This document shows, one piece after another, positions 8,517-58,591 of a stretch of DNA of 64,000 nt. Each line of letters starts with the position of its first letter. Position 1 is the stretch's first letter. This stretch comes from an uncultured Gemmatimonadaceae bacterium (GTDB lineage Bacteria; Gemmatimonadota; Gemmatimonadetes; Gemmatimonadales; Gemmatimonadaceae): assembly GCA_963790305.1 (NCBI GenBank), contig CAWBOC010000009.1:224001-288000 (forward strand), written 5' to 3'. Under the pieces are notes generated by a model. That model searched no databases, had not been told where the DNA came from, and saw only the letters and a list, made by a program, of their open reading frames with translations. A program made the translations under genes and the position numbers.

Positions 8517-8547
8517 TCGACCACCTCGACAACCTCGACAGCCTCGA
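8517..8547. repeat. Solo arm of the 9-bp CCTCGA(C)NN tandem repeat family
   Basis: TCGACCA CCTCGACAA CCTCGACAG CCTCGA; same unit as the arrays at 34984 and 45042. Confidence 0.7.
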
Positions 8548-8586
8548 TTTTCGTGACCGGAGGGCCGCTCATTCAGTCCTCTCGGT

Positions 8587-10581
8587 ATGAGCGAGATCGT
8601 CCCACGCAGTCGGCTTCCAGTCAACGGCCAGGTCGTCACCAAGGCCACATCGTCGTTCGCCAAAACGGTGTCGACGCTGGCGGCCCTCGTCTCCGTGTTG
8701 TCGTTCGCGCGCGCGTACGGCGTGATTGGAGATGACGCAGCCCACCTCACGGTGGGAGACATCGGTGCAGTATGGGTCGGCATCGCTCCGCTTGCCGACA
8801 CGGCTGACGCGCTGAACGACACGCTGCAGCTCACGGCGACGATCAAGGACAAGAGCGGAAGCGCCCTCGTCGGCGCCTCCCTCAAGTGGATGAGCGACCA
8901 CCCCGAGATTGCCTCGGTGACGCCGAGCGGCGGGGTCGTCGCGCATGCACCGGGAACGACCACCATCACGGCGACGGTCGGTGGACTGGTCGCACGGTCA
9001 CGGATCGTCGTGCGCCCGCACGTCGCCAACGTCCGCGTCGCCGGCGACAGCGAAATCGTAATGCGCGATGGCGAGCAACGCGCGATCTCGGCGCGCGGCG
9101 TCGATCGCCGCGACTACGTGATTCCGGGCTTGTTCGCGAAATGGCGCACGACCGACAGCGCCATCGTCAGCGTCGATTCGAATGGTTTCGCGACGGCGAT
9201 CCGCCCAGGGCGAGCGATCCTCGAGGCGACCATCAGCGGCGTGCGCACACAGGCCCCGGTAACGGTGCTTCCCACCGCCTTCGCGGTGCGGGTCGCCTCC
9301 GGTGACAGTCAGCGCGCCCCCGCGCGCGCCGCACTGCCGCTCCCAATCGTCATTCGTGTCGTGTCGCGGCACGGCCTCCCGATCCCACAGGCCAAGATTC
9401 GATTTCAGCCAGCGACTGGCGAGGGATCGACCGAACCCGACACGGCTACGACGGATGCCGATGGACGCGCCAAGACGGTGTGGAGGCTTGGTCCCATTCC
9501 GGGGTCACGGCGGCTGCTGGTCATGGCCGAGGGGATAGACAGCGCGCTCATCGTGACCGCGGATGCCGAGCCCGTCGCAGCCGAGACTCGCATCGTGGCG
9601 ATAGACACGGCGCAGCTCGCGGACATCGGGGCGAAGCTTCCCCACCCTGTGGCGATTCGACTGACGGACACATTGGGACGCCCGTTGGCGGACATTCCCG
9701 TCACCTGGGTTCCGCTCGACGGGGGCTCACTTACGCCACTGGCGCCGCGAACCGACTCGCTAGGTGAAGCACGCGTCGAATGGACCCTCTCGAATCGCGC
9801 CGGCACACAACGCCTGCGAGCACAGGTCGGTACAACGCGGGCCGTCCCGCCCATCGTGCTCACCGCGACGGCAAAGGCCGGAGCTGCGTCGACCGCATGG
9901 GTCGTTGGCGGCAACACCCAGACCGGCACCGTCGGGGCGCCACTCTCCAAGAAGGTTGCAATCAAGGTGCTCGACCGCGCCGGCAATCCGGTGCCGAGTG
10001 CCGTGGTGTACTTTGCGCCCGTGCGAGGCTCCGTGGGCGACTCGGCGATCATGGCCGACACGAGTGGCATCGCGCGCGCGGTCTGGACGCTCGACCGCGA
10101 GCCAGGCCCGCACTCGATGTCCGTGCGCGTGGAAGGCGTTCCCCGCCCAGTCATCGTGAACGCGACGGCCCGGTCTGGGGCAGCATCAGCCATCGATCTC
10201 ACGCCGAAGCAGGCGGTGGGAACGCCCGGCAAGCTCCTTGGCGACGGTGTCGAAGCCCGCGTCACCGACGAGTTCGGCAACCCGGTGAAGGGCGCCACCG
10301 TGACCTTCAAGGCGAGCGCCGGAGCGCTCTCGCCGGCGCGCGTCGTCACCGACGACAAGGGCCGCGCCCGCACACGATGGACGCTCGGCCGCGATGCCGT
10401 CGAGCAATCGCTGGTCGCGCGCGTGACCGGGAGCGGCGCCAGCGCGACGCTGGCCGCGCGCGTGTCGATTCCGTCGAAGGCCGGCACGTCATTGACCACA
10501 AAGAAGCCCGCGACCACCGGAAAGACTCCGGCCAAAACGCCGGTCCGCTCGAGCGCCAAGCCGACGAAGCGCTCGCGCTAG
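8587..10581 (+). CDS. Bacterial Ig-like repeat protein (Big_2 plus Big_1/invasin-type repeats)
   Basis: Two W.S.....ASV...G.V.A..PG...ITAT repeats, four V.D..G.P.....V.F/W...TD..G.A...WTL repeats, N-terminal hydrophobic segment, Lys/Thr/Pro-rich tail. Confidence 0.85.
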   Translation: MSEIVPRSRLPVNGQVVTKATSSFAKTVSTLAALVSVLSFARAYGVIGDDAAHLTVGDIGAVWVGIAPLADTADALNDTLQLTATIKDKSGSALVGASLKWMSDHPEIASVTPSGGVVAHAPGTTTITATVGGLVARSRIVVRPHVANVRVAGDSEIVMRDGEQRAISARGVDRRDYVIPGLFAKWRTTDSAIVSVDSNGFATAIRPGRAILEATISGVRTQAPVTVLPTAFAVRVASGDSQRAPARAALPLPIVIRVVSRHGLPIPQAKIRFQPATGEGSTEPDTATTDADGRAKTVWRLGPIPGSRRLLVMAEGIDSALIVTADAEPVAAETRIVAIDTAQLADIGAKLPHPVAIRLTDTLGRPLADIPVTWVPLDGGSLTPLAPRTDSLGEARVEWTLSNRAGTQRLRAQVGTTRAVPPIVLTATAKAGAASTAWVVGGNTQTGTVGAPLSKKVAIKVLDRAGNPVPSAVVYFAPVRGSVGDSAIMADTSGIARAVWTLDREPGPHSMSVRVEGVPRPVIVNATARSGAASAIDLTPKQAVGTPGKLLGDGVEARVTDEFGNPVKGATVTFKASAGALSPARVVTDDKGRARTRWTLGRDAVEQSLVARVTGSGASATLAARVSIPSKAGTSLTTKKPATTGKTPAKTPVRSSAKPTKRSR

Positions 10582-10623
10582 AGCGGCTCGCCAAGCTCCC
10601 CGGTCGTGCTCCGAACTCGGCCG

Positions 10624-11829
10624 TTACCGGTACGTCGGATCCAGCTCCGCAAGCTGCGCGCGGATCGACGACCACGCATTCTGGATCTGCGACGACGCCC
10701 GTGCCCGCTGAAGGGCACCATCCACCCGCTTGGCCGCGCCGACCAGCGCCTTACCTGCCAGTGCAGAGCCCTCGATGTTGCCGGAAACACGCACGAGTTG
10801 CTCATACAGCGAGGCATTGTCGGCGAACGCGGAGAGCGCGAACCACAGGTCGACATCGCCCTCCGCGTATGCCCGGCGCGCATCGAGGCGACCGCTCGCG
10901 GAGATCGCCAGGTCCTGACGGTGGCGGCCCACTAAACTCTGGGCACCACGCCGCAGAAGCGATGCCTCCTCCGGCGAGAGAGTCGCGGCATTCGCTGCAT
11001 CCGCCGTCGCTGAGAGACCGAGCGCCTGCGCGGTCCGGCCGTCGAGATTACCGGTCGCAATGATGCCTTTGTCGATCTGGAACTCGAACAGCGCGCGCTG
11101 CGTGGCGTCGTCGAGCTGCCCGTTGATCGAACCGCGATAATAGTTCTGCTGCGCGAGTACCTGCTGAGCGGCGCGAATTCGGTCCGCAGCCGTGTAGATC
11201 GTGAACGCATCGGGCGCCCGTGCGGCCCCGCGGCGACTCAGGACCAGGCCCTGTTCGAGCTGAACCGCGAGCGGGGTGCCCGCCGGCACCCGAACGTCGC
11301 GTGCCTCCGACAGCAGATTGCCCAGTGCAGCCATGATTCCCGACGTGGGACTCCTCTCAGATCCGGCTCCCGCGATTGCCGCCCCCACCCCACCACGTCC
11401 CCCGACCAGCACGACGCGGGCGTTGGGATCCGATTCTATCTGGCGCCGCTCGGCGGCGTCGGTGCTCGTCAACTTTCCGCTCAAGTTGTACGCCTTGCCG
11501 TCGGGCAAGCTCAGCCGATCGAAATTGACCTCGATGACGCCCGACCGCTGCCGATCAGCTGCCTGGGCGAAAGTGACAACTCCCCGGATCCGGCTACCCG
11601 ACGGAATGACGGTGTAGTTGTCCACACGTACGGTATCGGCCACGACCGTCTCGAAGGTCTGACCAACCTTCGCGGTCGCGGACTCGAGCGCGCTCGAGGT
11701 GCGAACGATAATGACGCTACCCTCTGGCAGTACGAGTCGCGTCTGCGCAGCGAGTCCCGACACGGAGAGGAGCGTGAAGCTGAGGGCCCACACGCCGCGT
11801 TCTGAGAACTTCGTTCGACGGGATCTCAT
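10624..11829 (-). CDS. Secreted protein with a beta-rich N-domain and a PG_binding_1 peptidoglycan-binding domain
   Basis: Signal peptide; IRAAQQVLAQQNYYRGSINGQLDDATQRALFEFQ..KG...TGNLD..T..ALG fits PG_binding_1. Confidence 0.78.
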   Translation of the reverse strand: MRSRRTKFSERGVWALSFTLLSVSGLAAQTRLVLPEGSVIIVRTSSALESATAKVGQTFETVVADTVRVDNYTVIPSGSRIRGVVTFAQAADRQRSGVIEVNFDRLSLPDGKAYNLSGKLTSTDAAERRQIESDPNARVVLVGGRGGVGAAIAGAGSERSPTSGIMAALGNLLSEARDVRVPAGTPLAVQLEQGLVLSRRGAARAPDAFTIYTAADRIRAAQQVLAQQNYYRGSINGQLDDATQRALFEFQIDKGIIATGNLDGRTAQALGLSATADAANAATLSPEEASLLRRGAQSLVGRHRQDLAISASGRLDARRAYAEGDVDLWFALSAFADNASLYEQLVRVSGNIEGSALAGKALVGAAKRVDGALQRARASSQIQNAWSSIRAQLAELDPTYR

Positions 11830-11949
11830 GGTTGACACCCCTTCTAAATGAGCATGATAACGCCGGCCCGTTCACGACATCGGTTAGCACGGATCGTTCC
11901 GCCTCGCTCTCTGGCGGTTGGACTATCTCCGCTTCCGAGCGGTGACGGC

Positions 11950-12414
11950 GTGGCCCTGACACTCTGGATCGACGCCGACGCGGCCCCACGAGACGTGAAG
12001 GACATCTGCGTCCGAGCCTCTGGACGCCTCATGCTCGCGACGGTCCTTGTGGCCAATCAGCGTCTGCAACTCCCGCCAGGGTATCCACATCTGTCGGCCG
12101 TTCGGGTCGACGGCGGACCGGACGCGGCCGACCGCTACATCGCGGAGCACGCTGCCGCAGGTGATGTTGCCGTCACGGCGGACATCCCGCTGGCCGCAGT
12201 CCTGGTACCCAAAGGAGTCGTCGTCCTCGACCCGCGCGGTGAGGAGTACACGATGGAGAGCATTGGGGAGCGCCTGTCGGTTCGAAACTTCATGGACGGA
12301 CTCCGAGGGGCCGGCGTCGAGACCGGGGGCCACGTCGCCTACGGCTCGCGCGAGAAGCAGGCGTTCGCGAATGCGCTCGACCGGGCGCTCACGCGCGCGA
12401 TACAGCGGCGCTGA
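11950..12414 (+). CDS. YaiI/YqxD (DUF188) family protein
   Basis: LWIDADAAP, DAADRYI, VTADIPLA, LDPRGEEYT..SIGERL..RNFM..LR. Confidence 0.92.
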   Translation: MALTLWIDADAAPRDVKDICVRASGRLMLATVLVANQRLQLPPGYPHLSAVRVDGGPDAADRYIAEHAAAGDVAVTADIPLAAVLVPKGVVVLDPRGEEYTMESIGERLSVRNFMDGLRGAGVETGGHVAYGSREKQAFANALDRALTRAIQRR

Positions 12415-12493
12415 CTTCCGTGCCCGCGAGCGCCGGCAGGCCCGCGCGCAAGACCTTGTGACACGATTCGTGGGCGCTGATCGTTGACGGACG

Positions 12494-13735
12494 ATGCGCT
12501 ACGCGGACGTCATCACGGTTGCGCTCAGCCAGCTGCGCGCGAATGCGCTGAGGTCGTTCTTCACGACCCTGGGCATCGTCGTCTCGGTCGCGTTTCTCGT
12601 GGCGGTGGTCGCGATCATTCAGGGGATGAACGCGTACGTGCGGGAGAACATCGCTGACGCGATCATTGGCGCCAATGCGTTTCAGGTCCGGCGCGTCCCC
12701 ATTCGCGTCGGCTTCTTCGACGATGAGGAATGGAAGCGCATCCAGCGGCGGCCGCGTGTGACCGCCGACGACGCGCGCAACGTCGCGGCGGCGATTCCGA
12801 ACGCCGTCGCCGTCGGGATGACCTCTGGGTGGCCGACACCGCAGGCGGATGTCGAGTGGCGCGACCGCACCGTCGGTGACGTGCTCGTCTTCGGGGTGAC
12901 GCCGCCCTATCAGGTGGTGCAGGATTATCGCTTCGCGTCCGGCCGCCCGCTCACCGAGATCGACGTGCGTGAGCGCCGGCCAGTGGTCGTGCTCGGCTGG
13001 GACATCGCCGATCGCCTGTTCGAGGGCGCGGACCCGATCGGCCGCCACGTGCGCATCATCGGCCAACGGTTCGAGGTGATCGGGGTGGTCGAGAAAAAGG
13101 GACGCGTACTCGGCCAATCGTTCGACGGCTTCGTCATGCTTCCGCTGAGCGCGTTCGAAAGCCTGTACGGGCGCCGGCAGACGACCACGATCTCGGTGAA
13201 GATGGGCGAAGCCGCGGACGTCGCCGGCGGCATGCGACGCGCTGAAGAGGCAATGCGTATCGCGCACGGGCTGCGGCCCGGGGAGGACAACGACTTCTCC
13301 GTCGAGACGGCCGACGCGCTGGTCGACTTCTGGAAGCGCCTGACGCGGGTGTTGTTCAGCGCGATCCCGGCCGTCGTCGCGATCGGTATCGTCGTCGGTG
13401 GCATCGTCATCATGAACATCATGTTGATGGCGGTGAACGAGCGCACCCGCGAGATCGGCATTCGGAAATCGGTGGGCGCGCGTGCGCGCGATATTCGTCG
13501 CCAGTTTCTCGCTGAGGCCGTGGCGCTCGCCACGCTGGGAGGTATTGGCGGTGTCGGTGCGGGATGGGCATTCGCGCAGCTCGTCGCGGCCGTGTCGCCG
13601 CTTCCTGCTCGAGTGACGCTCTGGTCCGTGGTGCTCGCGCTGGCGCTCGGCGCAGGGGTCGGTGTGCTGTTCGGCGTCTACCCCGCCTCACGAGCAGCGC
13701 GACTCAACCCCATCGCCGCGCTGCGAGCGGAATGA
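12494..13735 (+). CDS. MacB/FtsX-type ABC permease
   Basis: [49 protein letters not shown]. Confidence 0.92.
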   Translation: MRYADVITVALSQLRANALRSFFTTLGIVVSVAFLVAVVAIIQGMNAYVRENIADAIIGANAFQVRRVPIRVGFFDDEEWKRIQRRPRVTADDARNVAAAIPNAVAVGMTSGWPTPQADVEWRDRTVGDVLVFGVTPPYQVVQDYRFASGRPLTEIDVRERRPVVVLGWDIADRLFEGADPIGRHVRIIGQRFEVIGVVEKKGRVLGQSFDGFVMLPLSAFESLYGRRQTTTISVKMGEAADVAGGMRRAEEAMRIAHGLRPGEDNDFSVETADALVDFWKRLTRVLFSAIPAVVAIGIVVGGIVIMNIMLMAVNERTREIGIRKSVGARARDIRRQFLAEAVALATLGGIGGVGAGWAFAQLVAAVSPLPARVTLWSVVLALALGAGVGVLFGVYPASRAARLNPIAALRAE

Positions 13736-15003
13736 GTCCTGTCCTCAAGGCCCTGCGCGCCGTTCGCGCGGACACGCTGGCCGAGAACATCGGCATCGCG
13801 CTCGACACTTTGCGCGCCAACAAGCTGCGATCGGGTCTCACGGTGCTGGGCGTTGTCATTGGCGTATCGACGGTGATGGCGATGGCGGCCATCGTGCAGG
13901 GCATCCGCGAGCAGATCGTGCACACGATCGAGATCGCCGGGCCGACGACGTTCTACGTGATCAAATACTTCTCGCAGACGCCGCTCAATCCGGACCAGTT
14001 GCCCAAGGAAGTTCGCGTTCGGCCCGATCTCAACGCGAGGGATGCCGAGCGAATCGCGCAGCTGCCGGAGGTGGATTACAGCGCGGTCTGGGCCCAGCTG
14101 TTCGGGCGCCTCGAGTATCGCGGTGCCCGCACGCAGATGATCACCTTCTTCGGCGCGGACGAGCGGTACCAGGAGGTCCAGGGCGGCGAGCTCGTCGACG
14201 GACGGTGGTTCACCTCGGCCGAGCTCGCCAGTGGCGCTGCCGTGGTCGTGCTCGACGAAGGGATGGCCCGCCGGATCTTCGGCTACGTGAACCCGTTAGG
14301 CGAGCGCGTGCAGGTCTCGGGACGGCCGGCTCGCGTGATCGGGCTCTACGTGCCTCCCGAGAATATCTTCGCGCCTCCCGGACAGGAGATCGGCGCGATC
14401 ATCCCGTTTCGGATGGCGGACCAGCAGTACACGATCGACAAGACCAACGCCCTGTGGATCGTGGTGAAACCCCGCCCCGGAGTGACGGTCGCGGAAGCGC
14501 AGGACGCCGTCACGGTGGCGTTGCGCAACATGCGCAAGCTGCGGCCTGGCGATCCAAACACGTTCGACCTGATCACGCAGGACCAGATCCTCGATACGTT
14601 CAACAAGATCACCGGTGTGTTCTTTCTGGTGATGATCGTGCTCTCGAGCGTCGCCCTGCTGGTGGGCGGCATTGGCGTCATGGCGATCATGATGGTGTCG
14701 GTCACCGATCGCACGCGTGAGATCGGCGTTCGCAAGGCGTTGGGCGCCACGCGACGCGACATCCTCGTGCAATTCCTCATCGAGGCCGCGACGCTCACCG
14801 GCATTGGCGGCGCCATCGGCATCGCGTTCGGCCTGATGTTCGGTACCCTCATCACGCGCGTCATGGACATCCAGGCCGGCGTTCCGATGTGGTCCGCGGC
14901 GATCGCTGCCGCCGTGTCGATCGCGATCGGCATTGTCTTCGGCCTGCTTCCCGCCAACCGCGCGGCGCGTCTGGAGCCAGTGGAGGCGCTGAGGTACGAG
15001 TAA
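13732..15003 (+). CDS. MacB/FtsX-type ABC permease
   Basis: NKLRSGLTVLGVVIGV, IMMVSVTDRTREIGVRKALGA; ATGA overlap with the upstream gene. Confidence 0.92.
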   Translation: MSPVLKALRAVRADTLAENIGIALDTLRANKLRSGLTVLGVVIGVSTVMAMAAIVQGIREQIVHTIEIAGPTTFYVIKYFSQTPLNPDQLPKEVRVRPDLNARDAERIAQLPEVDYSAVWAQLFGRLEYRGARTQMITFFGADERYQEVQGGELVDGRWFTSAELASGAAVVVLDEGMARRIFGYVNPLGERVQVSGRPARVIGLYVPPENIFAPPGQEIGAIIPFRMADQQYTIDKTNALWIVVKPRPGVTVAEAQDAVTVALRNMRKLRPGDPNTFDLITQDQILDTFNKITGVFFLVMIVLSSVALLVGGIGVMAIMMVSVTDRTREIGVRKALGATRRDILVQFLIEAATLTGIGGAIGIAFGLMFGTLITRVMDIQAGVPMWSAAIAAAVSIAIGIVFGLLPANRAARLEPVEALRYE

Positions 15004-15010
15004 GGGCGAC

Positions 15011-15078
15011 TACGGAATGCGGAATGCGGAAGTCCGTGATGGAGCGACCTTACGAACTTCCGCATTCCGCATTCCGTA
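15011..15078. repeat. Palindrome of 7-bp (GCGGAAT) tandem units
   Basis: Perfect 23-bp inverted repeat TACGGAATGCGGAATGCGGAAGT (15011-15033) / 15056-15078. Confidence 0.92.
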
Positions 15079-15102
15079 TTCGGCCCCTTATCTTCCCTCC
15101 CC

Positions 15103-15819
15103 ATGTCGGTCGACATTCTCGCCATCGCCGCGCACCGGGATGACGTCGAGCTCACCTGTGGCGGGACGCTGCTGGCGGCGGCGGCGCGCGGGCGACGTAC
15201 GGCGATCATCGATCTCACCGGGGGGGAAGCCGGCACGCGGGGCTCGGCGGAGCTGCGCGCGAAGGAGGCGGAGCGCGCAGCGCACGTACTCGGCGTCACC
15301 GCACGCGAGAACCTCGGATTCCCCGATGCCGCGTTGGTGAATACACCGGACTCGCGCGCGAAGGTTGCCGTCGCGATCCGGCGCTTTCGTCCGCGCGTCG
15401 TCATTGCGCCGGCCTCGTATGGGCGGCATCCCGATCATCGCATTGCCGCCGAGCTCGTGCGTGACGCGTGCTTCATCGCGGGATTGGCCAAGGTGGAGCC
15501 GGGCGTTCCCGCGCATCGACCGTTCAAGATCGTGCATTCCCTCACCTATCGTGAGGATCCGGTGAAGCCGACGTTCATCGTCGATATCAGCGAAGTCTTC
15601 GAGCGAAAGCTGGAGGCGATCCGATGCTACGCCTCGCAGTTCGACGGCGTCACGCAAGCGGGCGAAGTGTACCCCAACGGCGATCCCCTGCTCGACATCG
15701 TTCGGCATCAGGCGGCGCACTACGGATCGCAGATTCGCACCCGGTACGGAGAACCGTTCTTCACCCACGAAACGATGCGCGTCGACGACATCGCGGCGCT
15801 CGAGGTGTCGACATTTTGA
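15103..15819 (+). CDS. bshB1: Bacillithiol biosynthesis deacetylase BshB1 (PIG-L family)
   Basis: DILAIAAHRDDVELTCGGTL, DLTGGEAGTRG, RHPDH, YGEPF. Confidence 0.85.
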   Translation: MSVDILAIAAHRDDVELTCGGTLLAAAARGRRTAIIDLTGGEAGTRGSAELRAKEAERAAHVLGVTARENLGFPDAALVNTPDSRAKVAVAIRRFRPRVVIAPASYGRHPDHRIAAELVRDACFIAGLAKVEPGVPAHRPFKIVHSLTYREDPVKPTFIVDISEVFERKLEAIRCYASQFDGVTQAGEVYPNGDPLLDIVRHQAAHYGSQIRTRYGEPFFTHETMRVDDIAALEVSTF

Positions 15820-17224: not shown

Positions 17225-17234
17225 GGAACGAGCA

Positions 17235-20735: not shown

Positions 20736-20744
20736 CGCCAAGGC

Positions 20745-21209: not shown

Positions 21210-21212
21210 GGG

Positions 21213-29711: not shown

Positions 29712-29803
29712 GGCGCTAAAGGCGCTAGGGGCGCTAAGGGCGCTGGAAGTGCCAAAGGCGCGTGCCGTTCAGCGCCCCTAGCGCCTCTCGCGCCTCTAGC
29801 GCT
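29712..29803. repeat. Palindrome of 9-bp GGCGCTRRR tandem units filling the pgsA-cinA gap
   Basis: GGCGCTAAA GGCGCTAGG GGCGCTAAG GGCGCTGGA... versus AGCGCC CCTAGCGCC TCTCGCGCC TCTAGCGCT; the last unit contains the pgsA stop. Confidence 0.85.
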
Positions 29804-32987: not shown

Positions 32988-33063
32988 AATGCAGAATGCG
33001 GATTGCGGAATGCGGAAATGCGTTGGGGGACCATTCGAATCCGCATTCCGCATCCCGCATTCT
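32988..33063. repeat. Palindrome of 7-bp (AATGCGG) tandem units
   Basis: AATGCAG AATGCGG ATTGCGG AATGCGG versus AATCCGCATTCCGCATCCCGCATTCT; same unit as 15011-15078. Confidence 0.88.
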
Positions 33064-34841: not shown

Positions 34842-34946
34842 GAGTGCCTCAGGTCTTACGGGGCAGCGTCCACCACACATACCGCTGCTACCTGCGGGGT
34901 CCTGACGGGATTAGTGAGCTCGCGCCCCCCGGGACCTGAGGCACTC
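34842..34946 (-). ncRNA. ffs: Signal recognition particle RNA (small 4.5S type)
   Basis: Perfect 14-bp terminal stem GAGUGCCUCAGGUC/GACCUGAGGCACUC; core CCGUCAGG...AGCAGCGG; conserved position upstream of dnaX-ybaB-recR. Confidence 0.9.
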
Positions 34947-34983: not shown

Positions 34984-35063
34984 GGTTGTCGAGGTCGTCG
35001 AGGTGATCGAGGAGAGGCAAGGACGTTCCTCGATCACCTCGACACCCTCGACCACCTCGATCA
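34984..35063. repeat. Palindrome of 9-bp TCGAGGTNN tandem units
   Basis: GGTTGTCGA GGTCGTCGA GGTGATCGA GGA versus TCC TCGATCACC TCGACACCC TCGACCACC TCGATCA; ends in the ltaE stop codon. Confidence 0.88.
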
Positions 35064-43628: not shown

Positions 43629-45097
43629 ACCACTTCGACCTTCATCATGTTCGTGCTGCCAGGCTGATCGAAGGGCACCCCCGCCGTGACGACGACTCGC
43701 TCGTTCGGCTTGGCCAGCCCGCGCGCACGCGCCGCGGTGAGCGCATGTCCCACCATCGCGGTGTAGTTCCCCGCGCTCGGCACGAGCTCGGGCTGCACGC
43801 CCCACACCAGGGCCAGCTGACGGTACGTGCGCTCGACGTCGGTCGCGGCCAGGATGGGAACCTCCGGACGGTGTGATGCAACCACACGCGCGCTGAATCC
43901 ACTTTTGGTGAAGACGATGATGAGCGGCACCGCGAGCATGCGAACCGCCGCGACGGTCGCGGCGGCAATGGCGTCCTCGGTCTCCACGGGCCCGTCGGAC
44001 CGGCGCAGCCGTGCGTGATCGGTCACGCGCTGTTTCGGCGCGGGATGACTCTCGATCTCGGTGATGATGCGGCTCATCGCGCGCACGGCGAGCTCGGGAT
44101 ACTGCCCGGTCGCTGTCTCCGCCGACAGCATCACGGCGTCCGTGCCGTCGAGGATCGCATTCGCGACGTCGCTCGCCTCGGCGCGCGTGGGCCGCGGATT
44201 CTCGATCATCGACTCGAGCATCTGCGTGGCGGTGATCACCGGTCGGCCGGCGGCGTTGGCCAGCGCGATGATGCGCTTCTGCGCAATGGGCACCTCCTCG
44301 AACGGCAGCTCCACGCCGAGATCGCCGCGCGCAACCATTACGGCGTCGGCGACACGCAGGATGCTGTCAATGTTCGCGAGCGCGGTGTCCTTCTCGATCT
44401 TCGCGACGACGAGCATGTGCGGCGGAACGAGCCGACGGAGCCCCTCAATGTCCTTCGCCCGTCGCACGAACGAGAGCGCGAGGTAATCGACTTCCTGGCC
44501 CACCGCGAACTCGATGTCGGCGCGATCCTTCTCCGTGATCGATGGCGCGGAGACGAGCACGCCGGGAAGGTTGATTCCCTTGTGGCTCGACATGGGCCCG
44601 CCGTGGACGACGCGAGCCACAACGCGCGGCGGATGCACCTCGAGCACGACGAGGTCGAGCAGGCCGTCGTTGATGAGGATGCGATCTCCGACCTTTACAT
44701 CGCTCGCCAGCTCGCCGTACGTGACGGGAATGTCCTCCCCTTCCGCAACCGCGTCGGGGGCCAGCACGATGTCGTGCCCCTCGACCAGCATGACGGGCGC
44801 GGGAAGGTCTCCGATGCGTATGCGAGGTCCCTGGAGATCTCCCAGGATGGCGATGGGGCGGCCGATCTCCTTCGCGATCGCACGCACCGCGCTGATGACT
44901 TCCTCATGCTGCTCGTGCGTGCCATGCGAGAAGTTGATACGGGCGACGTTCATCCCGGCCGTGATGAGGGCGCGCAATACCGTGGGCGAGGACGACGCAG
45001 GCCCGATCGTGCAGACGATCTTTGTGCGGGCGGTATGACGAGAGGTTGTCGAGGTGGTCGAGGTCGTCGAGGGTGTCGAGGTCGCTACCGTGCTCAT
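43625..45097 (-). CDS. pyk: Pyruvate kinase
   Basis: RTKIVCTIGPAS, RINFSHG, DLQGPRIR, AKIE, MVARGDLGVE, ATQMLESM, PTRAEASDVANA. Confidence 0.97.
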   Translation of the reverse strand: MSTVATSTPSTTSTTSTTSRHTARTKIVCTIGPASSSPTVLRALITAGMNVARINFSHGTHEQHEEVISAVRAIAKEIGRPIAILGDLQGPRIRIGDLPAPVMLVEGHDIVLAPDAVAEGEDIPVTYGELASDVKVGDRILINDGLLDLVVLEVHPPRVVARVVHGGPMSSHKGINLPGVLVSAPSITEKDRADIEFAVGQEVDYLALSFVRRAKDIEGLRRLVPPHMLVVAKIEKDTALANIDSILRVADAVMVARGDLGVELPFEEVPIAQKRIIALANAAGRPVITATQMLESMIENPRPTRAEASDVANAILDGTDAVMLSAETATGQYPELAVRAMSRIITEIESHPAPKQRVTDHARLRRSDGPVETEDAIAAATVAAVRMLAVPLIIVFTKSGFSARVVASHRPEVPILAATDVERTYRQLALVWGVQPELVPSAGNYTAMVGHALTAARARGLAKPNERVVVTAGVPFDQPGSTNMMKVEVV

Positions 45098-45155
45098 GCG
45101 ATCCTCCCCTCGATCACCTCGACAGCCTCGACGACGTCGACACCCTCGAGCCTCA
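45042..45155. repeat. Palindrome of 9-bp TCGAGGTNN tandem units spanning the tal stop and pyk start
   Basis: GAGGTTGTC GAGGTGGTC GAGGTCGTC GAGGGTGTC GAGG versus CCTCGATCA CCTCGACAG CCTCGACGA CGTCGACAC CCTCGA. Confidence 0.88.
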
Positions 45156-49847: not shown

Positions 49848-49884
49848 CCGGACGTTCGACCGCAGTGCCCCACCACCGAGATCT

Positions 49885-51609: not shown

Positions 51610-51731
51610 GCTCGTCCTCGGAGCCACCTCGATCCTCCTGAATTCCGTTCTCGCCGAGCGCCCGCGGGCGCCTTTACGCCGGCACAATGCACAAACCTTG
51701 CTCGCGGGCCGTTCCGCCCTGAAACCGCAAT

Positions 51732-52340
51732 GTGAGGTCCGCGTACGGCCTTGGGGTCGGCGCAGGCGGGGGCGTGCGCGGGCTAATGATCGGCGGCGTT
51801 GGCGTAGGCAGCGGCGGACGCCTCAGCGGAATCACCATCGCAGGCGTTGGCGCGGGGTCGGGCGGAGGGGTCGACGGCCTCACGATCGCCGGGCTTGGCG
51901 TTGGAAGCGGCGGCCAAGTCCGAGGGATCAGCATCGCGGGGCTTGGCGTCGGCGCGGGCGGGGGCGTCTCCGGCGTCAGCATCGCCGGGCTTGGAATCGG
52001 CTCGGGCGGAGAGATCCGCGGGCTGGCGATCGCTGGAGGCGGCGTGGGATCTCCGAAGATCTCCGGGATCGTGATCACCGGCATCGGGGCCGGCACGCTC
52101 GACTTCAACGGGGGCGTGATCGCGCCTTTCTACTTTCGTATCGAGAAAGAGGGGTCGATGCGAGGCGTATCGGTGAGCGGGTTCAATCGCCTGAGTGGCG
52201 TGCAGCACGGGCTCACGATCGGCGTGCTCAACATCGCCGAAGAGCTGCGTGGTGTGCAGATCGGCCTCATCAACATCGCGCGTCGCAACCCGAAAGGGCG
52301 GCGCGTGCTACCGGTCGCGAACTGGGGCTCGCGCGACTGA
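51732..52340 (+). CDS. Gly-rich 15-aa repeat protein (LA_2272-like), probably 5'-truncated
   Basis: About seven G(L/I/V)xIAG(L/V)GVG(S/A)GGxx repeats and GVQIGLINIA...LPVANW; no signal peptide or RBS. Confidence 0.6.
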   Translation: MRSAYGLGVGAGGGVRGLMIGGVGVGSGGRLSGITIAGVGAGSGGGVDGLTIAGLGVGSGGQVRGISIAGLGVGAGGGVSGVSIAGLGIGSGGEIRGLAIAGGGVGSPKISGIVITGIGAGTLDFNGGVIAPFYFRIEKEGSMRGVSVSGFNRLSGVQHGLTIGVLNIAEELRGVQIGLINIARRNPKGRRVLPVANWGSRD

Positions 52341-52805
52341 CGCCTGCGTCGCGGCCGGTGAGCCCCGAATGAAGGCGATGAGATCGGTGGGTTGCGGCTC
52401 GGCGCCCGCACCGCGAACGAGCATCGAGACCTGCCCGCGGTGGTAGCTACCGTGCATGGCCACGTGTAGCAGGATGTCCTCGATCGCGTTGTCGAACTCG
52501 TCGCCGGCGCTGTTTCGATAGTGCACCACGCGCCGAACGTCGCCACTCGCCAGGCGGTCGAGATATGCCCGAAATGTGCGGCCATTCTCCGCCGCGACCT
52601 GCGCGCATTCATCGACCGTCAGTATTGGCCAGACCGGTATGGACGGCGGCCGCTGCTCGAGCCGCGCGACCCAGACATGCTCCGCGCCGAGCACGTGCGC
52701 GTAGAGATCGAGCGCGCGCTTCGGAACTCCTGATTGGCGGAGCGATTCGAGGATGCGCTCGTCCGCCCAGGCCATGTGATCAACCAACGTCCGGAGATGG
52801 TTCAC
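52308..52805 (-). CDS. DinB/YfiT family protein
   Basis: HMAWADERIL, AHVLGAEHVW, LLHVAMHGSYHRGQ. Confidence 0.9.
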   Translation of the reverse strand: MNHLRTLVDHMAWADERILESLRQSGVPKRALDLYAHVLGAEHVWVARLEQRPPSIPVWPILTVDECAQVAAENGRTFRAYLDRLASGDVRRVVHYRNSAGDEFDNAIEDILLHVAMHGSYHRGQVSMLVRGAGAEPQPTDLIAFIRGSPAATQASVARAPVRDR

Positions 52806-52815
52806 GTACCGGGCC

Positions 52816-53175
52816 TCAGAGCCGCGCGGGCTCCTGGACGGTCCGCTCGTCGATGACGTTCCCGGTGTTGAGCGTACCCGCCGGCTCGAACAACACCACT
52901 TCGACCTCGTCCTCAGCGACCGGGCGATGCTCGACGCCTCGCGGCACCACGATCATTTCGCCAGGTCCGACATCCACCACGCGATCGCGAAACTCCATGC
53001 GAAAACGCCCGCGGTGGACGAGAAAGAGCTCGTCTTCGTGGTCATGGTGATGCCACACGAACTCCCCGCGAAACTTGACGAGCTTGACGTGCTGCCCGTT
53101 CAGCTCGGCCACTATTCTCGGACTCCAGTGCTCGTCGATCGCGGCGAACTTCTCCCGAAGATCGATGCCGACCAT
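52816..53175 (-). CDS. Cupin domain protein
   Basis: HWSPRIVAELNGQHVKLVK, FVWHHHDHEDELF, VPRGVEHRP. Confidence 0.92.
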   Translation of the reverse strand: MVGIDLREKFAAIDEHWSPRIVAELNGQHVKLVKFRGEFVWHHHDHEDELFLVHRGRFRMEFRDRVVDVGPGEMIVVPRGVEHRPVAEDEVEVVLFEPAGTLNTGNVIDERTVQEPARL

Positions 53176-53176
53176 G

Positions 53177-53635
53177 TCAGTCTCCCGCGCGGGCCCGCGT
53201 CGACAGCGGCGGACACGCCGCGCCGATCGCTGCCACAATCTCTCCGCGTGAGCGTCCGGCTGTCCAGCCGTATGCGGTCTCGAGCTCGTCTGTGATCCGG
53301 GCCAGCACATTCTCGCGTGGATACCCGACGGCGAGGTCCCACTGCGCCTCGGCGCAAAATGCGTCGGCCTCGGAGCGCAGCTTTCCGTCGATGGTCAGCC
53401 GTGCGGCGTACGAGCGGACGGCCCCCATCTCCTCGCATTGAGCGGCGTGCGCGCGCTCATGAATCTCGGCCAGCGTACGTGAGCGCCCGCTCAGTGTCGA
53501 ATCGATCCGCGTGATGGGGCCGACAATCGGAAGACAGATCGTCATCCCATCGAGTCCTTTGGGGAGCGGAGCGCGCGCGGCCGCGAGCGAAAGCGCGAGG
53601 AGCCCAGGCGCCAGCAGCCAGACTACGCGACGCAT
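53177..53635 (-). CDS. Small secreted hypothetical protein with HExxH motif
   Basis: Signal peptide; IHERAHAAQ followed by EADA. Confidence 0.55.
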   Translation of the reverse strand: MRRVVWLLAPGLLALSLAAARAPLPKGLDGMTICLPIVGPITRIDSTLSGRSRTLAEIHERAHAAQCEEMGAVRSYAARLTIDGKLRSEADAFCAEAQWDLAVGYPRENVLARITDELETAYGWTAGRSRGEIVAAIGAACPPLSTRARAGD

Positions 53636-53763
53636 GGAGATGCGGCGATCGCGCGCCACGGTGTGGAGCCGATGCGTCACGAACAGGTGCGATCCGGGCA
53701 TGGTCGCTTCCCCTCGACGCCCGTTTTCGGGCACTCGACGTGGAGGGCGCTACGAAACTCCGC

Positions 53764-54204
53764 CTATGCACCTCGTAGCAAGTCAAGAAGCGCGCCGAAC
53801 ACCACGATCGATCCCCACACCGCGAGTCCGATGAGCAGAAGGAGCGCAAGGAGGATTCCCGCGACCGTGAGCGCACTTGCTTTCTTCGTCGATGCCGGCT
53901 GCTCGCGCCACGACTCGAGGAGCCGCACGTTGCGAGTGTTGGCTCGCCAGGCGACGTCGAAGACATCGCCAATGAGCGGGATGGCGCCGAGGACCACGTC
54001 AATGGCGACGTTGGCGAGCATCCGGCCGAGTACCGGCGTGGGCGCTCCAGACCGCGCGGCCTGGAGGACGATGAGCCCGGAGAAGAGGCCGCCGGCAACG
54101 TCACCTCCGCCCGGAAGGAGGCCGAGGAGCGCATCCAGGCCAATGCGGATGTTCGTGCCCGGAATTCGAATTGCCTCGTCGAGGACACGCGCGAGGTCGC
54201 GCAT
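53764..54204 (-). CDS. DUF4112 family protein
   Basis: LDEAIRIPGTNIRIGLDALLGLLPGGGD, GAIPLIGDVFD..WRANTRN. Confidence 0.9.
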   Translation of the reverse strand: MRDLARVLDEAIRIPGTNIRIGLDALLGLLPGGGDVAGGLFSGLIVLQAARSGAPTPVLGRMLANVAIDVVLGAIPLIGDVFDVAWRANTRNVRLLESWREQPASTKKASALTVAGILLALLLLIGLAVWGSIVVFGALLDLLRGA

Positions 54205-54214
54205 GGGGCTGCGC

Positions 54215-54667
54215 TCAGTCGGCGAGGTCAGGGCGTCCCTCCAGGCGTATCATCGTCGCCGTCATGATCGCGACCTCGCGCTCCTCTGTCCCATTGATTG
54301 CCTTGACCGTTCCTTCACAGATGGTCAGGGTTCGTCCCGCGCGTCGTACCCGGCCGCTGGCCAGAAATCGTTCACCACGTCCGGGAGCGAGCAAATTGAC
54401 CTTGAACTCCACGCTCATCACTCCCGAACCCGACGGCATGAGCGACAGCGCCGCATAGCCGCAGGCGCTGTCCGCGATCGAAGCGACGGCGCCGGCGTGA
54501 AGTACCCCGTGCTGCTGCGCCAGGTCATCGCGCCATGGAACCTCAATGACGACCGCCCCGGGAGCAACGGACACGATGCGTGCTCCGATCGTCCCCATGA
54601 ATCTCTGCCGCGCGAAGGAGTCGCGAACGCGGCGTTCGTAATCGGGATCTGGCGCCGAGCGGGGCAC
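54215..54667 (-). CDS. PaaI family thioesterase
   Basis: QQHGVLHAGAVASIADSACG, EFKVNLLAP, GRTL. Confidence 0.9.
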   Translation of the reverse strand: MPRSAPDPDYERRVRDSFARQRFMGTIGARIVSVAPGAVVIEVPWRDDLAQQHGVLHAGAVASIADSACGYAALSLMPSGSGVMSVEFKVNLLAPGRGERFLASGRVRRAGRTLTICEGTVKAINGTEEREVAIMTATMIRLEGRPDLAD

Positions 54668-54670
54668 TCG

Positions 54671-55003
54671 TCAGACGATGGTCAGCTTGAAGTACAGCTC
54701 GCCACCGGGATACTCCGGCGCGCGGTCCCATCGCCGCTGCGAGTCGGAGATCATGTCCCGCGCCGTCGTGATGGACGCGGGCGCGTCGAGGGGAAGCGCG
54801 AACGATCCCTGGTGCATGAGCGATTTCGTGCGCGTGCCATCGGCGAGGCGCACCCACCCTTCCCATGATTCGACGCGCATGCCCGCGCGACCGAGGTGAT
54901 CGAGTGCGGTGAGCGCATCGTCGTGCCGCATTACCACGTCCTGCTTCGAGAGCGATCGTGCCGCCAGCTCCTCTGGCAGGACCGCAAGATTCGAGGATGA
55001 CAT
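54671..55003 (-). CDS. Hypothetical protein
   Basis: 110-aa ORF co-oriented and tightly packed with its neighbours; protein-like composition. Confidence 0.55.
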   Translation of the reverse strand: MSSSNLAVLPEELAARSLSKQDVVMRHDDALTALDHLGRAGMRVESWEGWVRLADGTRTKSLMHQGSFALPLDAPASITTARDMISDSQRRWDRAPEYPGGELYFKLTIV

Positions 55004-55053
55004 ACAGGCAATCTCGCGCGTCCGTGCCGTCACGCGCCAGTCAGTGGCCGCCT

Positions 55054-55509
55054 TTACGGCCCGCCGAGTGTGTAGCCGCGCGCGAGTGCAACGGCGACGA
55101 AGACGATCACCACGATCAGAAACGCCTCTATGGTGCTGATGCGGGCGATGCGGCGCGCCGCTCCGAACGCCGCGGTCTGGTTGCGTCCCATGGCACGGCG
55201 CCAGCGAATGAGCGTGATCATCGGCCAGATCTCGAGCGCGACGACGAGCAGGAACAATCCCATCTTCAGATGGAAGAGGGGATTCTGGAGATAGTACGAC
55301 GTCGCCTTGTCCGTGCCCACGAGCACGCGCGCCAGCCCGGTGGAGAACCACAACACGGCCGCGACGGCCCACCAGCTATCTGCCGCGAACGCACGCCGTA
55401 TCGCGGCCCCGTCTACGATCCCGCGGAGCGCACGGCTGCGCGCCCAGACCGCACCCAGGCCTATTCCCAGCGCGATCAAGTGTGTGGCGGCGAGCAGGAG
55501 GCGCAGCAC
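55054..55509 (-). CDS. DUF2214-like membrane protein
   Basis: HLIAL, D..W...A.L...TGLAR, K...YYL.NPLFHLKM.LF, WP.ITLIRWR. Confidence 0.8.
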   Translation of the reverse strand: MLRLLLAATHLIALGIGLGAVWARSRALRGIVDGAAIRRAFAADSWWAVAAVLWFSTGLARVLVGTDKATSYYLQNPLFHLKMGLFLLVVALEIWPMITLIRWRRAMGRNQTAAFGAARRIARISTIEAFLIVVIVFVAVALARGYTLGGP

Positions 55510-55667
55510 GCGGTGAGTCCCGGGGGGGTAGAGTGGCCTTCGAGTCGCGCAACCATACACCGTCGAGGCAGGGGCTGCAATGTGGAATCCGCCCTGGTTG
55601 CGCATCGCGGGTCGCGTGGCCACGTTGAGAAGCAGGCATTCTTCTGCCCTATGTCAGGAGGTCGCTC

Positions 55668-56915
55668 ATGCCCGGCACAATGCCCTCCATCGACCGCGAT
55701 GCGCTCACGCGTTTGAAAGCAGGGGACGAGCAAGCGCTGCGACGCATCTTCGACGACCACTACTCCACGCTGACCCAGGAAGCGGCCACCGTGCTCGAAG
55801 ATCCGGGCGGCGCGCCGCGGGTCGTCGAAAGCGTGTTCGTCCGCGTCTGGGACGAGCGAACGGAGTTCGAGTCGCCGGAAGCGCTGGAGTCGTTCCTTCA
55901 CAAGGCGACCCGCGAAGCAGCCGCTCGCGCGCAGAGTCGTCGCGCCTCGCTGCATCGATTCGAGTCGCACGAAGGTGTGCACGCCCACGGCAACTCGCAC
56001 CGCAAGGAGCCAACGACCGCGGGCGAAGCGTGGTCGCACGTGGAGCACACCATTTACGCGCGCTCGCATCGCGGCGAGACGCTGCATCAAATGGCCGATC
56101 ACTCGCGCCACGCCACCGCCGAGCACGTCGGCGGAATGACGAAGCGGAAACCCTGGCTCTGGCCCGCCATCGGACTGGCGGCCGTCGCGCTCGTGATCCT
56201 CACGCCGATCGCGCTCATCGATCGGGCGAGCGAGGACCGCGCGGTGACCGCGGGAATTCGCTCGCGAGAAGCGCGCACGCTCGTCGCGCGCCAAGGCAGC
56301 CGTACCGCCATTCGTCTCGGCGACGGCACCGACGTCACGCTCGGCGGCGACTCGCGACTCACTGTACCGCCCGGATTCGGCGACCGGCTGCGCGGTGTTG
56401 GATTGGAAGGCACCGGGACGTTCGTCGTTGCACCGGAACAGCCGCTCGTGTTCCAGGTGCGCACGAAGGACGTGGCCATCAAGGCCCTCGGCACCACCTT
56501 CACTGTCCGCGCGTATCCCGATGAGAACTTCGTCGCCGTGCGCGTGAAGGAAGGACAGGTCACCGTGCAGGGGCAACAGGACCCGCGCACGCTGACCGCG
56601 GGTCAGGCCGTGATGGTCGACGCCCAGGGCGTCATCCGCGAGCCCACTCAGCAGGAGATCGACGAAGCGCTCGCCTGGTCCGACGGCCGCCTGGTGATGA
56701 ACCAGAAACCAATGCGAGAAGCACTGCAGCATCTCCAGCGGTGGTACGCGCTTGGTCTCGTCGTCCGCGACTCCTCGATCCTGGACCGCCCCGTGTCCAT
56801 GAACGTGTCGCTCGACTCCTCGCGCAACGCGATCGCGGCGCTGGAGCAGAGCGCGAACGTGAAATTCGGATACGAGGGTCGTGTTCGCGTGTTGAGGGAT
56901 GGGGTGAAGAAATAA
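55668..56915 (+). CDS. FecR-family anti-sigma protein with N-terminal ECF sigma region-2-like domain
   Basis: N-terminal LKAGDEQALRRIFDDHYSTL...VVESVFVRVW; TM segment; FecR motifs LGDGTDVTL, LEG...F.V, LGTTFTV, VKEGQV; C-terminal AWSDGRLV...LQRWY. Confidence 0.85.
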   Translation: MPGTMPSIDRDALTRLKAGDEQALRRIFDDHYSTLTQEAATVLEDPGGAPRVVESVFVRVWDERTEFESPEALESFLHKATREAAARAQSRRASLHRFESHEGVHAHGNSHRKEPTTAGEAWSHVEHTIYARSHRGETLHQMADHSRHATAEHVGGMTKRKPWLWPAIGLAAVALVILTPIALIDRASEDRAVTAGIRSREARTLVARQGSRTAIRLGDGTDVTLGGDSRLTVPPGFGDRLRGVGLEGTGTFVVAPEQPLVFQVRTKDVAIKALGTTFTVRAYPDENFVAVRVKEGQVTVQGQQDPRTLTAGQAVMVDAQGVIREPTQQEIDEALAWSDGRLVMNQKPMREALQHLQRWYALGLVVRDSSILDRPVSMNVSLDSSRNAIAALEQSANVKFGYEGRVRVLRDGVKK

Positions 56916-57001
56916 GGGTGCTCAGGGTGCTCAAGGTGCTCAGGGTGCTCAGGGTTCACCTCCCTGAGCACCCTGAGCACACTGAGCACCCCGAGCACCC
57001 T
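56915..57001. repeat. Palindrome of 9-bp AGGGTGCTC tandem units
   Basis: About 4.5 units on each arm (56915-56954 / 56962-57001) with a 7-nt loop; begins in the fecR stop and ends 5 nt before the ackA ATG. Confidence 0.93.
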
Positions 57002-57006
57002 TCCTT

Positions 57007-58251
57007 ATGAACGTCCTCGTCCTCAACGTCGGCTCCTCCTCACTCAAGTTCGAGCTCATCGGGACTGACGCCGAGCGCATCGAGGCGAACGCGGATACGC
57101 GACTCGCCGGCGGCGCGGTGGAGCGGATTGGCGGGGAGGCCGTGTTGTCGCTCGACGTGAAGGGACGTGGCGGGCAGCGGTCGGTCGCGCCGCTGCGGAA
57201 CCTTGCCACCGCCGTCGAGCACGTGGCCGCGTGGCTGGTGAGCGAGGAGGCGGACGCGGGGATTGCCACGCTCGCTGAGATCGAAGCGGTGGGCCATCGT
57301 GTCGTGCATGGCGGCGAGGATTTCGCGCGATCGCAGCGCATCGACGAGGCCGTTCTCAAGGCGCTCGATGAGCTGGTCGAGCTCGCCCCGCTGCACAACC
57401 CGCATAACATTGCCGGCATCCGCGCCGCGACGCGCGTGTTCGGACCCGGGGTTCCACAGGTGGCGGTGTTCGACACCGCGTTCCATCACTCGCTCCCCGA
57501 GGTCGCGTACCTGTATGGCCTACCCTACCAGCTGTATCGCCGGTACAAGGTGCGGCGGTACGGATTCCACGGGACCTCGCATCGGTACGTCGCGCACCGC
57601 TACCGTCAGCTCACGGGTCGCTCGCGCGAGCGCACCCGACTCATCACACTCCACCTCGGCAACGGCGCGTCGGCGTGCGCGATTCTCGGTGGGGAATCGA
57701 TCGACACGTCAATGGGATTTACACCGCTCGAGGGGCTCGTCATGGGCACGCGGTCGGGAGATCTGGATCCCGCGATTCTCGACTTCGTGGCCAGCAAGGA
57801 AGGGCTGACGCTCTCGGAGATGGAGACGCTGCTCAACAAGCAGTCGGGGCTGCTCGGTCTCTCGGGTCTCACGCCCGACATGCGCGAGCTGCTCAACGAG
57901 ATCGAGGAGCACGACGACCGGCGCGCGCGGCTGGCGGTGGAGGTGTTCTGCTATCGCATCCGCAAATACATCGGCGCGTACCTGGCCGTGCTCGACGGTG
58001 CCGATGCGATCGTGTTCGCCGGTGGAATCGGGGAGAACGCCGCCGCGATCCGCGCGCGGGTCTGCAGCGGTCTCGAGTGGATGGGAATCAGCGTCGATCC
58101 CGACGCCAATGCCTCGCTCACGACGGGACGCGAGGGGCGATTCAGCAAATCGGACAGCCGGGTCGAGCTCTGGGTGATCCCGACGGACGAGGAGCTGCTG
58201 ATTGCGCGCGATACGTGGAGGGTGGTCACGGGGGCGCCGTTGCGATATTGA
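57007..58251 (+). CDS. ackA: Acetate kinase
   Basis: [64 protein letters not shown]. Confidence 0.97.
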
Positions 58252-58591
58252 AACGGCAAAGATGACAGAATTCAGAACCGCATTGAAGCATCCAGGTTCA
58301 AAGGGGGGACGCGGATTCTGCGGATGCAACGGATACTGCGGATTGCTCCATGCGCCGTGATCCTTCTTAGACAGGAGCCAAAGGGCGGTTGCCTTTTCCT
58401 GCGCGAGGAGAGTTCTCGGCGCCAGGAGCGATCCGCCTGATCCGCGAAATCCGCGAAATCCGCGTCCCCCCTTTGAACCTGGATGCCAGCGTCGCGCACG
58501 TCGTTCGCCACAAACGACCACGGGGAGCCGCCAACTGGCTCCCCGTAGGTTTTGTCGGAATTCCATTCTGAATTCTGTCATCGTTGCCGTT
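58252..58591. mobile_element. Nested inverted-repeat element (MITE/REP-like, non-coding)
   Basis: Outer 26-bp IR 58252-58277 / 58566-58591 (1 mismatch); inner perfect 30-bp IR 58288-58317 / 58457-58486 continuing into 9-bp GCGGATNNN arrays. Mobility is inferred, not shown. Confidence 0.6.
58520..58546. terminator. GC-rich hairpin between convergent genes, probable terminator
   Basis: ACGGGGAGCC-GCCAACT-GGCTCCCCGT followed by AGGTTTT. Confidence 0.6.

Follow-up and report, generated by a model that had tools for sequence, protein, structure and literature searches.

The 64,000-nt stretch of DNA analysed here (the window) comprises positions 224001-288000 of contig C9 in the genome of an uncultured Gemmatimonadaceae bacterium (G000; 4.31 Mb in 13 contigs, 94% complete) and carries, at the junctions between protein-coding genes, a series of hairpins whose arms are tandem arrays of short units in inverted orientation. 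Each of these hairpins belongs to one of roughly a dozen repeat families, most of them with a tiny partner gene, that are packed into the gene junctions of this bacterium. All seven hairpins listed in the initial annotation of this DNA, as well as an additional arm at 8517, are present in the sequence with the positions and units assigned to them there, and six of the seven, as claimed, overlap or lie within 7 nt of the stop codon of the gene that is transcribed into the hairpin.

The leftmost element is a decayed hairpin of the TCGAGG 9-mer kind (8419..8560) located after a stop codon at 8418. Its right arm (8517-8547) and inner stem (approximately 8453-8510) are recognizable and its left arm is eroded; the arm at 8517 is thus real, but it is not the solo arm it was taken for, because the stem of the old hairpin is visible in all five relatives. 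Across the genus, the right arm of the 8419-8586 region is kept and the left arm decays, and in four relatives the right arm includes the sequence TTGACA, which may reflect reuse of the persisting arm as a promoter. Next, a GCGGAAT 7-mer hairpin (15004..15085, units at 15011-15078), the units of which start 7 nt past the stop of a gene for a MacB-like permease, precedes a bshB1-like gene; the relatives have GCGGATT, GAGTGAG or GAGGACT-type units at this junction. The GGCGCT 9-mer hairpin (29712..29803) is 5 nt away from a minus-strand stop (29809) and precedes cinA, with GGTGCTC or GGTCCTC units found in its place in four of five relatives. A second GCGGAAT 7-mer hairpin (32988..33063) follows the dnaX stop by 3 nt, before ybaB, and is replaced by GAGGAAC units in four of five relatives. 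Two hairpins belong to the TCGAGG 9-mer class. One of these (34984..35063) touches a threonine-aldolase-like gene at its stop, is upstream of a gene resembling the signal recognition particle (SRP) RNA, and corresponds to GGGCCAA-type units in two of four relatives and to a collapsed element in one. The other (45042..45152) lies 1 nt past the stop of tal (45153, minus strand); it does adjoin a stop codon, but the relevant one is that of tal, given that the nearby plus-strand TGA is lost in two of four relatives. The ATG of the pyruvate kinase gene (45097-45095, minus strand) is inside the loop of this hairpin, and the 9-mer arm therefore codes for a leader of some 20 residues that is rich in Ser and Thr; in relatives with 8-mer arms, pyruvate kinase appears to start just outside the arm.

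The remaining elements flank ackA. The AGGGTGCTC 9-mer hairpin (56914..57002), of the GGTGCTC class, overlaps the stop of a FecR-like gene upstream of ackA; among eight congeners, this junction is occupied by four unit classes and one non-periodic hairpin, and the partner gene of the class was not found in G000 but is present in G002, G003 and G007. The convergent gap after ackA is filled by an outer TCAGAAT 7-mer hairpin (58252..58591; inner stem 58520-58546) that abuts two stops and was not listed in the initial annotation. Nested in it is a GCGGAT 9-mer element with GCATCCAGG ends (58288..58486), a member of a class associated with genes of the GxxExxY family; this element is present as described, is absent from its junction in all eight congeners, and is separated from the ackA stop by 36 nt. 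Leaving aside the 8517 remnant, most relatives hold a hairpin at the seven window junctions, often of another class.

The folding energies of the window hairpins differ from those of shuffled sequences by z values of -7.5 to -18.4 (-2.6 for the 8419-8560 remnant). At the scale of the whole genome of G000, a class-blind detector that identifies inverted pairs of three-fold periodic 5-mers yields 222 palindromes (period 7 at 120 loci, 9 at 96, 10 at five and 11 at one), in 221 of which the purine-rich arm leads, and a class-aware catalogue includes 346 hairpins of 13 classes; outer hairpins are outside this catalogue, and nesting is known from individually inspected loci. Two codon-block shuffles yielded no palindromes with the former procedure, and two shuffles yielded no hairpins with the latter. 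An origin by chance was rejected. An assembly artefact was likewise rejected, because congeners hold hairpins at the same junctions and, in four soil DNA sequencing runs, contigs of relatives pile up on the repeat at 56837-57003; one soil contig has 133 other letters in place of 56878-57007. The soil contigs show only that these repeats occur in relatives. No Rfam family matches any part of the window at its gathering score, and the microRNA families that appear below the cut-off were dismissed as generic hairpin matches.

Profile matches in G000 include six genes of the PF05635 family (four-helix bundle, Avd-like) and four of PF13366 (GxxExxY), and all ten are located inside such arms, each with a different unit (at the C5:66 locus, the left arm is cut by the contig end). 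The link to these two kinds of genes, which the initial annotation mentioned for other genomes, is thereby borne out, and its suggestion that the hairpins are empty sites of a cargo-carrying element is supported. Its other suggestion, a system of repetitive extragenic palindromic (REP) type with a RAYT/HUH transposase, is at odds with the lack of any PF01797 match in this 94% complete genome, where matches to PF04480 (DUF559) and PF00078 (reverse transcriptase) were not found either. A complete, or master, cassette, all examples of which are outside the window, spans approximately 450-600 bp and consists of a purine-rich tandem arm, a short gene and an inverted arm. At 95 of the 135 four-helix-bundle loci surveyed in Gemmatimonadaceae, xanthomonads and Nostoc, the two flanks carry one and the same unit in inverted orientation, compared with control values of 23 (direct order) and 12.7 (mismatched flanks); matched inverted arms were also recognized by eye at 19 of 20 further loci. 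Of 50 loci, 35 have the four-helix-bundle gene antisense to both neighbours and one has it in sense orientation; in Xanthomonas, it is sense to its neighbours. At several of these loci (among L016-L074), a few bases separate the start codon from a preceding TANNNT hexamer, recognized by eye, as in leaderless transcripts.

The genes within the arms match TIGR02436, which scores above its cut-off in all three proteins scanned, and TIGR04256. The four-helix-bundle protein is closely similar to Xcc0516 (2GSC; template modelling score, TM, 0.94; 42% identity) and has a fold similar also to that of BT_0352, the structures of both of which contain five chains. Similarity to Avd extends to the fold (4DWL, TM 0.81), whereas the scores with the Avd profile NF033474 (29.4 and 27.8, E 8e-7) are below the cut-off of 80. 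In the GxxExxY proteins, D, E and K residues and a QxxxY motif are invariant in 21 of 21 sequences, and a PD-(D/E)XK nuclease fold with D...ExK residues is predicted; the best structural matches are Cas4 SSO0001 (Z 7.8, root mean square deviation 3.2, 96 aligned residues), Hjc and restriction nucleases, none of which reaches Z 8 or E 0.001. Three of the GxxExxY loci are known only as proteins or site matches. In the tree of 58 proteins, the seven with 9-mer arms form one clade (support 100/99), and within the genus, proteins that share a unit group together. The three 9-mer units of the window have a common GAGG core, which together with this clade means that the five unit sequences regarded as unrelated in the initial annotation are not all so. 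The tree and the structure model include one sequence from an unpublished genome, G054, and the tally for the family Gemmatimonadaceae includes G015 and G054; the conclusions are independent of both.

The abundance of each class follows the presence of its gene. Of the 55 PF05635 matches in nine congeners, 53 were inspected for arms; 13 of 13 genome-by-class combinations with the gene have 38-282 pattern matches, and 11 of 14 in which the gene was not found have 0 or 1. The GGGCCAA class has 38-147 matches in five genomes with the gene and 0, 0, 0 and 1 in four without it; the respective numbers are 48-282 in five genomes and 17, 1, 0 and 0 for GGCGCT, and 114-251 in three genomes and 32, 20, 0, 0, 0 and 0 for GGTGCTC. 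In the Xanthomonas family, at least eight GGGARWC matches are present in 23 of 39 genomes with PF05635 and in 4 of 41 without it, one genome being not scored. These counts include kin that are not independent of each other, and several of the genomes are incomplete. The PF05635-free genomes G037 and G078 yield five detector hits in 200 kb and four in 172 kb, at most one of which appears by eye to be of this build, compared with about 11 of 16 hits in 120 kb of G059; this comparison is weak because GxxExxY genes were not searched for in these genomes and because G050, which does have the genes, is low too.

The junctions themselves persist between species. Over 400 kb of G004 and as much of G005, roughly a tenth of the genome in either case, a junction occupied in G000 is occupied in the relative in 27 of 32 cases, compared with 9 of 155 for unoccupied junctions (G004), and in 26 of 28 compared with 8 of 176 (G005). 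A strict detector gives 16/23 vs 15/164 and 19/25 vs 8/179, and a third one 29/36 vs 12/151 and 28/33 vs 6/171 or, when restricted to gaps of at least 40 nt, 29/36 vs 9/60 and 27/31 vs 1/49, for G004 and G005, respectively. At co-occupied junctions, the class differs in 16 of 27 (G004) and 21 of 26 (G005) cases with the first detector and in 12 of 29 and 20 of 28 with the third; the class calls are imperfect, and the inspected pairs show clean exchange of whole hairpins. The variation among relatives that the initial annotation anticipated does exist but consists mainly of class exchange at the same junction rather than simple presence or absence. One element is chimeric, with arms of two classes; one cassette type is found at two sites; and one site that is occupied by a full cassette in G008 has, in G000, an empty hairpin of that class. 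No target duplication was detected: the frequency of flanking direct repeats is much like that in the control, and there are none at the empty site C5:146311. Divergence is raised next to the elements, within the adjoining gene over a distance of up to about six codons: of 62 ends beside elements, 27 have a changed stop codon, compared with 15 of 85 and 10 of 154 in controls, and the mismatch over the last six codon positions is 0.23-0.29, compared with 0.12-0.17, and no control exceeds 0.19. At C6:325497 and C9:804703 of G000, where G005 has full elements, there are minimal hairpins with one unit per arm, possibly products of collapse or excision.

Placement relative to genes was assessed using 4012 genes called in this analysis, the stops of which are more reliable than the starts. 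The 346 elements include 186 in co-directional, 122 in convergent and 38 in divergent contexts, whereas the 2094 gaps of at least 60 nt include 1286, 308 and 500, respectively, so that convergent gaps are enriched. When elements overlapping a called gene by more than 15 nt are omitted, the four-helix-bundle classes contribute 126 co-directional elements, of which 96 come within 10 nt of the upstream stop (37.8 expected under uniform placement) and only 15 come as near to the start; for residual gaps of at least 60 nt, the count is 45 of 62 (7.4 expected), and in convergent gaps, 68 of 94 elements are within 15 nt of both stops. The GxxExxY classes (GCGGAT and its kin) show no such siting (5 of 30 vs 4.9 expected), and the postulated genome-wide enrichment at stop codons accordingly holds for the former classes but not for the latter. 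Four elements of G000 (C1:30457, C1:151191, C9:90399 and C9:158689) are within 60 nt of tRNA genes, one of them between tRNA-Trp and tRNA-His. At C9:409235-410551 and C7:189546-189906, tuf and a short gene that may be broken are enclosed between unpaired GCGGAAT arms, so the arms may sometimes enclose host genes, and an insertion sequence (IS) resembling IS3, identified by eye from its translation, is present in the loops of two GCGGAT-class hairpins (C7:4664-6088 and C12:2464-3887), so these hairpins may be IS targets.

The interpretation that we favour, with a probability of roughly 0.6, is that the window hairpins derive from a family of small cassettes as copies lacking the gene, which gene-bearing masters keep up via replacement at fixed sites. 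It is supported by the association of one unit class with each gene, the dependence of class abundance on the gene, the persistence of the sites, the exchange of whole hairpins, the lack of target duplication and the raised divergence of the adjoining codons. The partner protein would act in trans on arrays of its own unit, its target being probably the extruded hairpin or the purine-rich single strand, and would provoke strand exchange or a cut where a junction already has a hairpin, acting directly in the case of GxxExxY and through host repair enzymes in the case of the four-helix bundle. Repair from another copy would then overwrite the old element with a new one, and such rewriting would recur until selection halts it at the reading frame, leaving the elements flush with stop codons; upon loss of a gene, its class would decay or be overwritten.

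Several observations weigh against this interpretation. The four-helix-bundle protein has no known catalytic role, and no GxxExxY gene was found in the four xanthomonad genomes checked, so that the four-helix-bundle classes do not need GxxExxY. Five of the ten partner genes of G000, including those of three abundant classes, have a single frameshift, which may be real or an assembly error. There are no near-identical copies in G000 (none at a score of at least 0.85), unlike what a recent burst of copying would produce. A code relating protein residues to unit bases was not confirmed in 48 representatives with less than 55% identity (Mantel r 0.08, p 0.08); of the individual columns, one has a family-wise p of 0.007, and the residue after EG has a nominal p of 0.001 (family-wise 0.32). 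The strict detector gives weaker counts of class exchange (6 of 16 in G004 and 11 of 19 in G005), and many of the 36 one-sided cases are degenerate elements missed by the detector, which blurs the test for a prior hairpin at empty sites. Three of the gene-less genome-by-class combinations retain 17-32 matches, four gene-less xanthomonad genomes retain 23-33 GGGARWC matches, G050 has ten genes yet only three detector hits in 140 kb, and the congeners in the class-versus-gene counts are not independent.

One alternative is that the hairpins are RNA elements selected by the host, namely mRNA stabilisers, RNase III sites, terminators or translation brakes, in which case the partner would be an RNA-binding regulator of its own array and turnover would occur by gene conversion. 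The persistence of the sites across species is compatible with such a role, and so are the solved structures in which, judging from the entry titles, Avd is bound to RNA, the cleavage by RNase III of the stem of the intervening sequence (IVS) described in the 23S rRNA of Coxiella burnetii (PMC4990558) and the maintenance of arm pairing through compensated changes (26, 8 and 6 vs 7.2, 2.9 and 3.9 expected from independent columns, with relatedness not controlled). However, pairing at the RNA level, as also proposed in the initial annotation, leaves no signature, given that G-U pairs do not exceed A-C pairs on the sense strand (115 and 119, respectively); furthermore, there is interchange of a dozen classes at one site, elements are over-represented in convergent gaps, coding tails beside elements diverge faster, and the gene is mostly antisense to both neighbours. 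We consider this explanation unlikely.

Spread via an RNA intermediate, whereby the element would be cut from a transcript like an rRNA IVS, bound by an Avd-like ring, subjected to error-prone reverse transcription and returned to existing hairpins, could account for the Avd-like fold and the sub-threshold profile match, for the uniqueness of every copy and for the siting after stops, which would suit a transcript-linked process. It appears improbable because G000 yields no reverse transcriptase match, GxxExxY cassettes have the same build with a nuclease-fold protein, and the empty copies have no clear orientation relative to transcription, although the counts are small. Still less credible, and largely disfavoured, is an origin independent of the protein, in which periodic hairpins arise at permissive junctions by slippage and template switching, with the genes as mere passengers inside them: the varying unit numbers, unique copies and arrays retained in some gene-less genomes would be expected, but not the one-to-one pairing of gene and unit, the abundance of classes that follows the gene, the purine-rich arm leading in 221 of 222 palindromes, or the non-periodic ends and inner cores that the copies share. 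As an example of such cores, one with three hairpins around CTCATCAGATGAG fills 12 TCAGGAG-class elements (e.g., C10:304219 and C9:828998), with 15 occurrences in G000, and is found also with GGGCCAA arms in G005; it contains many compensated pairs.

The system is real and genome-wide; its parts are known singly, and its working is undescribed: no account of it was found in the open-access papers searched, a body that excludes most of the subscription literature. The findings point to a type of self-maintaining DNA element not described before, which may also account for the long-puzzling repeats of Xanthomonas and cyanobacteria. A bolder proposal, advanced tentatively and at somewhat less than even odds, is that this is a widespread form of DNA that replicates without a transposase or reverse transcriptase. 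Its small proteins, re-programmable and of two unrelated folds, would each recognize a tandem unit of their own and write over the hairpins of rivals at fixed gene junctions, making the families compete for sites. A ring of four-helix-bundle subunits may bind one unit per subunit, considering the five chains of the solved structures and the arms of mostly 2-4, rarely 5-6, exact units. This proposal would provide one origin for IVSs of rRNA that contain open reading frames (ORFs), cyanobacterial heptamers and the GGGAATC repeats of Xanthomonas. Two uncharacterised protein families (TIGR02436 and TIGR04256), one with solved structures, acquire a testable function, and a common cause is offered for rRNA IVS mobility and for several repeat families published so far without an explanation; if true, the exchange of competing families at fixed sites, together with the faster change of stop codons and C-termini, would be a new route of genome change.

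Two neighbouring genes in the window also merit mention. The SRP RNA-like gene (34845-34940, minus strand), upstream of dnaX, scores 39.6 bits against a gathering score of 40, and CGCAG replaces the usual GGAA loop. The N-terminal part of the FecR-like protein (gene at 55668-56915) weakly matches extracytoplasmic function sigma factors, making it a possible sigma/anti-sigma fusion.

Among the known systems, MITEs (miniature transposable elements with inverted repeats) combine inverted ends with a gene-bearing partner, and homing elements have fixed sites and altered flanks; the present elements resemble both in these respects. Unlike MITEs and IS elements, they cause no target duplication, and the genes within the arms match TIGR02436 and TIGR04256, with no transposase gene; unlike homing elements, their target junctions are numerous, and the same junction is taken by different classes. 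The fold shared with the Avd protein of diversity-generating retroelements is accompanied by scores below the Avd cut-off and, in G000, by no reverse transcriptase match. REP elements have a conserved terminal tetranucleotide tag, GTAG or CGTC; no such tag stood out in the element ends inspected here, for which no dedicated search was made. In REPIN-RAYT systems, as described by Bertels and Rainey (bioRxiv 10.1101/2021.07.10.451892), each genome has numerous extragenic palindromes that are non-autonomous and form families, each family being tied to a low-copy gene and persisting in lineages. High-copy extragenic palindromes depend on a low-copy gene here as well, as judged from kin that are not independent, but no Y1/HUH transposase was found in G000, the partners having a four-helix bundle or PD-(D/E)XK fold; the arms are tandem units of 7-11 nt and the gene sits inside one copy; and there are no near-identical copies, with classes replacing one another at fixed sites.

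The heptamer repeats of Xanthomonas and Nostoc are grouped here with the short tandemly repeated repetitive (STRR) heptamers. Arrays of about four GGGAATC (Xanthomonas) or GGGGA(C/T)T (Nostoc) units near stop codons, often in inverted pairs in Xanthomonas, were reported by Rehm et al. (2015; PMC4692102) and read as G-quadruplexes; that article does not include the term 'helix bundle' or make the link to the gene. GGGAATC-type arms enclose the sole PF05635 gene in each of three Xanthomonas genomes, GGGGACT/GGGGATT arms enclose one in Nostoc linckia, and of seven Nostoc loci examined, six have arms on both sides and the plasmid copy of PCC 7120 on one side only; unlike these heptamers, most units of G000 lack G-tracts. 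The TAACTGA repeats of Beggiatoaceae are also unexplained intergenic heptamer arrays, with a patchy spread, but almost all are direct and upstream of start codons (PMC4679880), in contrast to the inverted arms observed here. A further comparison is with ORF-bearing rRNA IVSs, which are also cited for the 23S rRNA of Leptospira (PMC4990558). Like the Coxiella IVS, which combines a TIGR02436/PF05635 ORF with terminal inverted repeats and tandem GACAGAT heptamers (PMC4990558), the master cassettes, although not the empty copies of the window, contain an S23p/four-helix-bundle ORF between inverted repeats with tandem heptamers. They differ from IVSs in that neither the elements of the window nor the cassettes of G000 are in a 23S rRNA helix, both being located between protein genes, that the cassettes are mostly antisense to their neighbours in Gemmatimonadaceae, and that hundreds of empty copies exist. 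The Coxiella heptamer, compared here through its published description (PMC4990558), is close to the GATGACAGAAT/TCAGAAT class, and with the same protein, inverted ends and GACAGAT heptamers, the Coxiella IVS, so far as it is described there, therefore looks like one landing site of this family.

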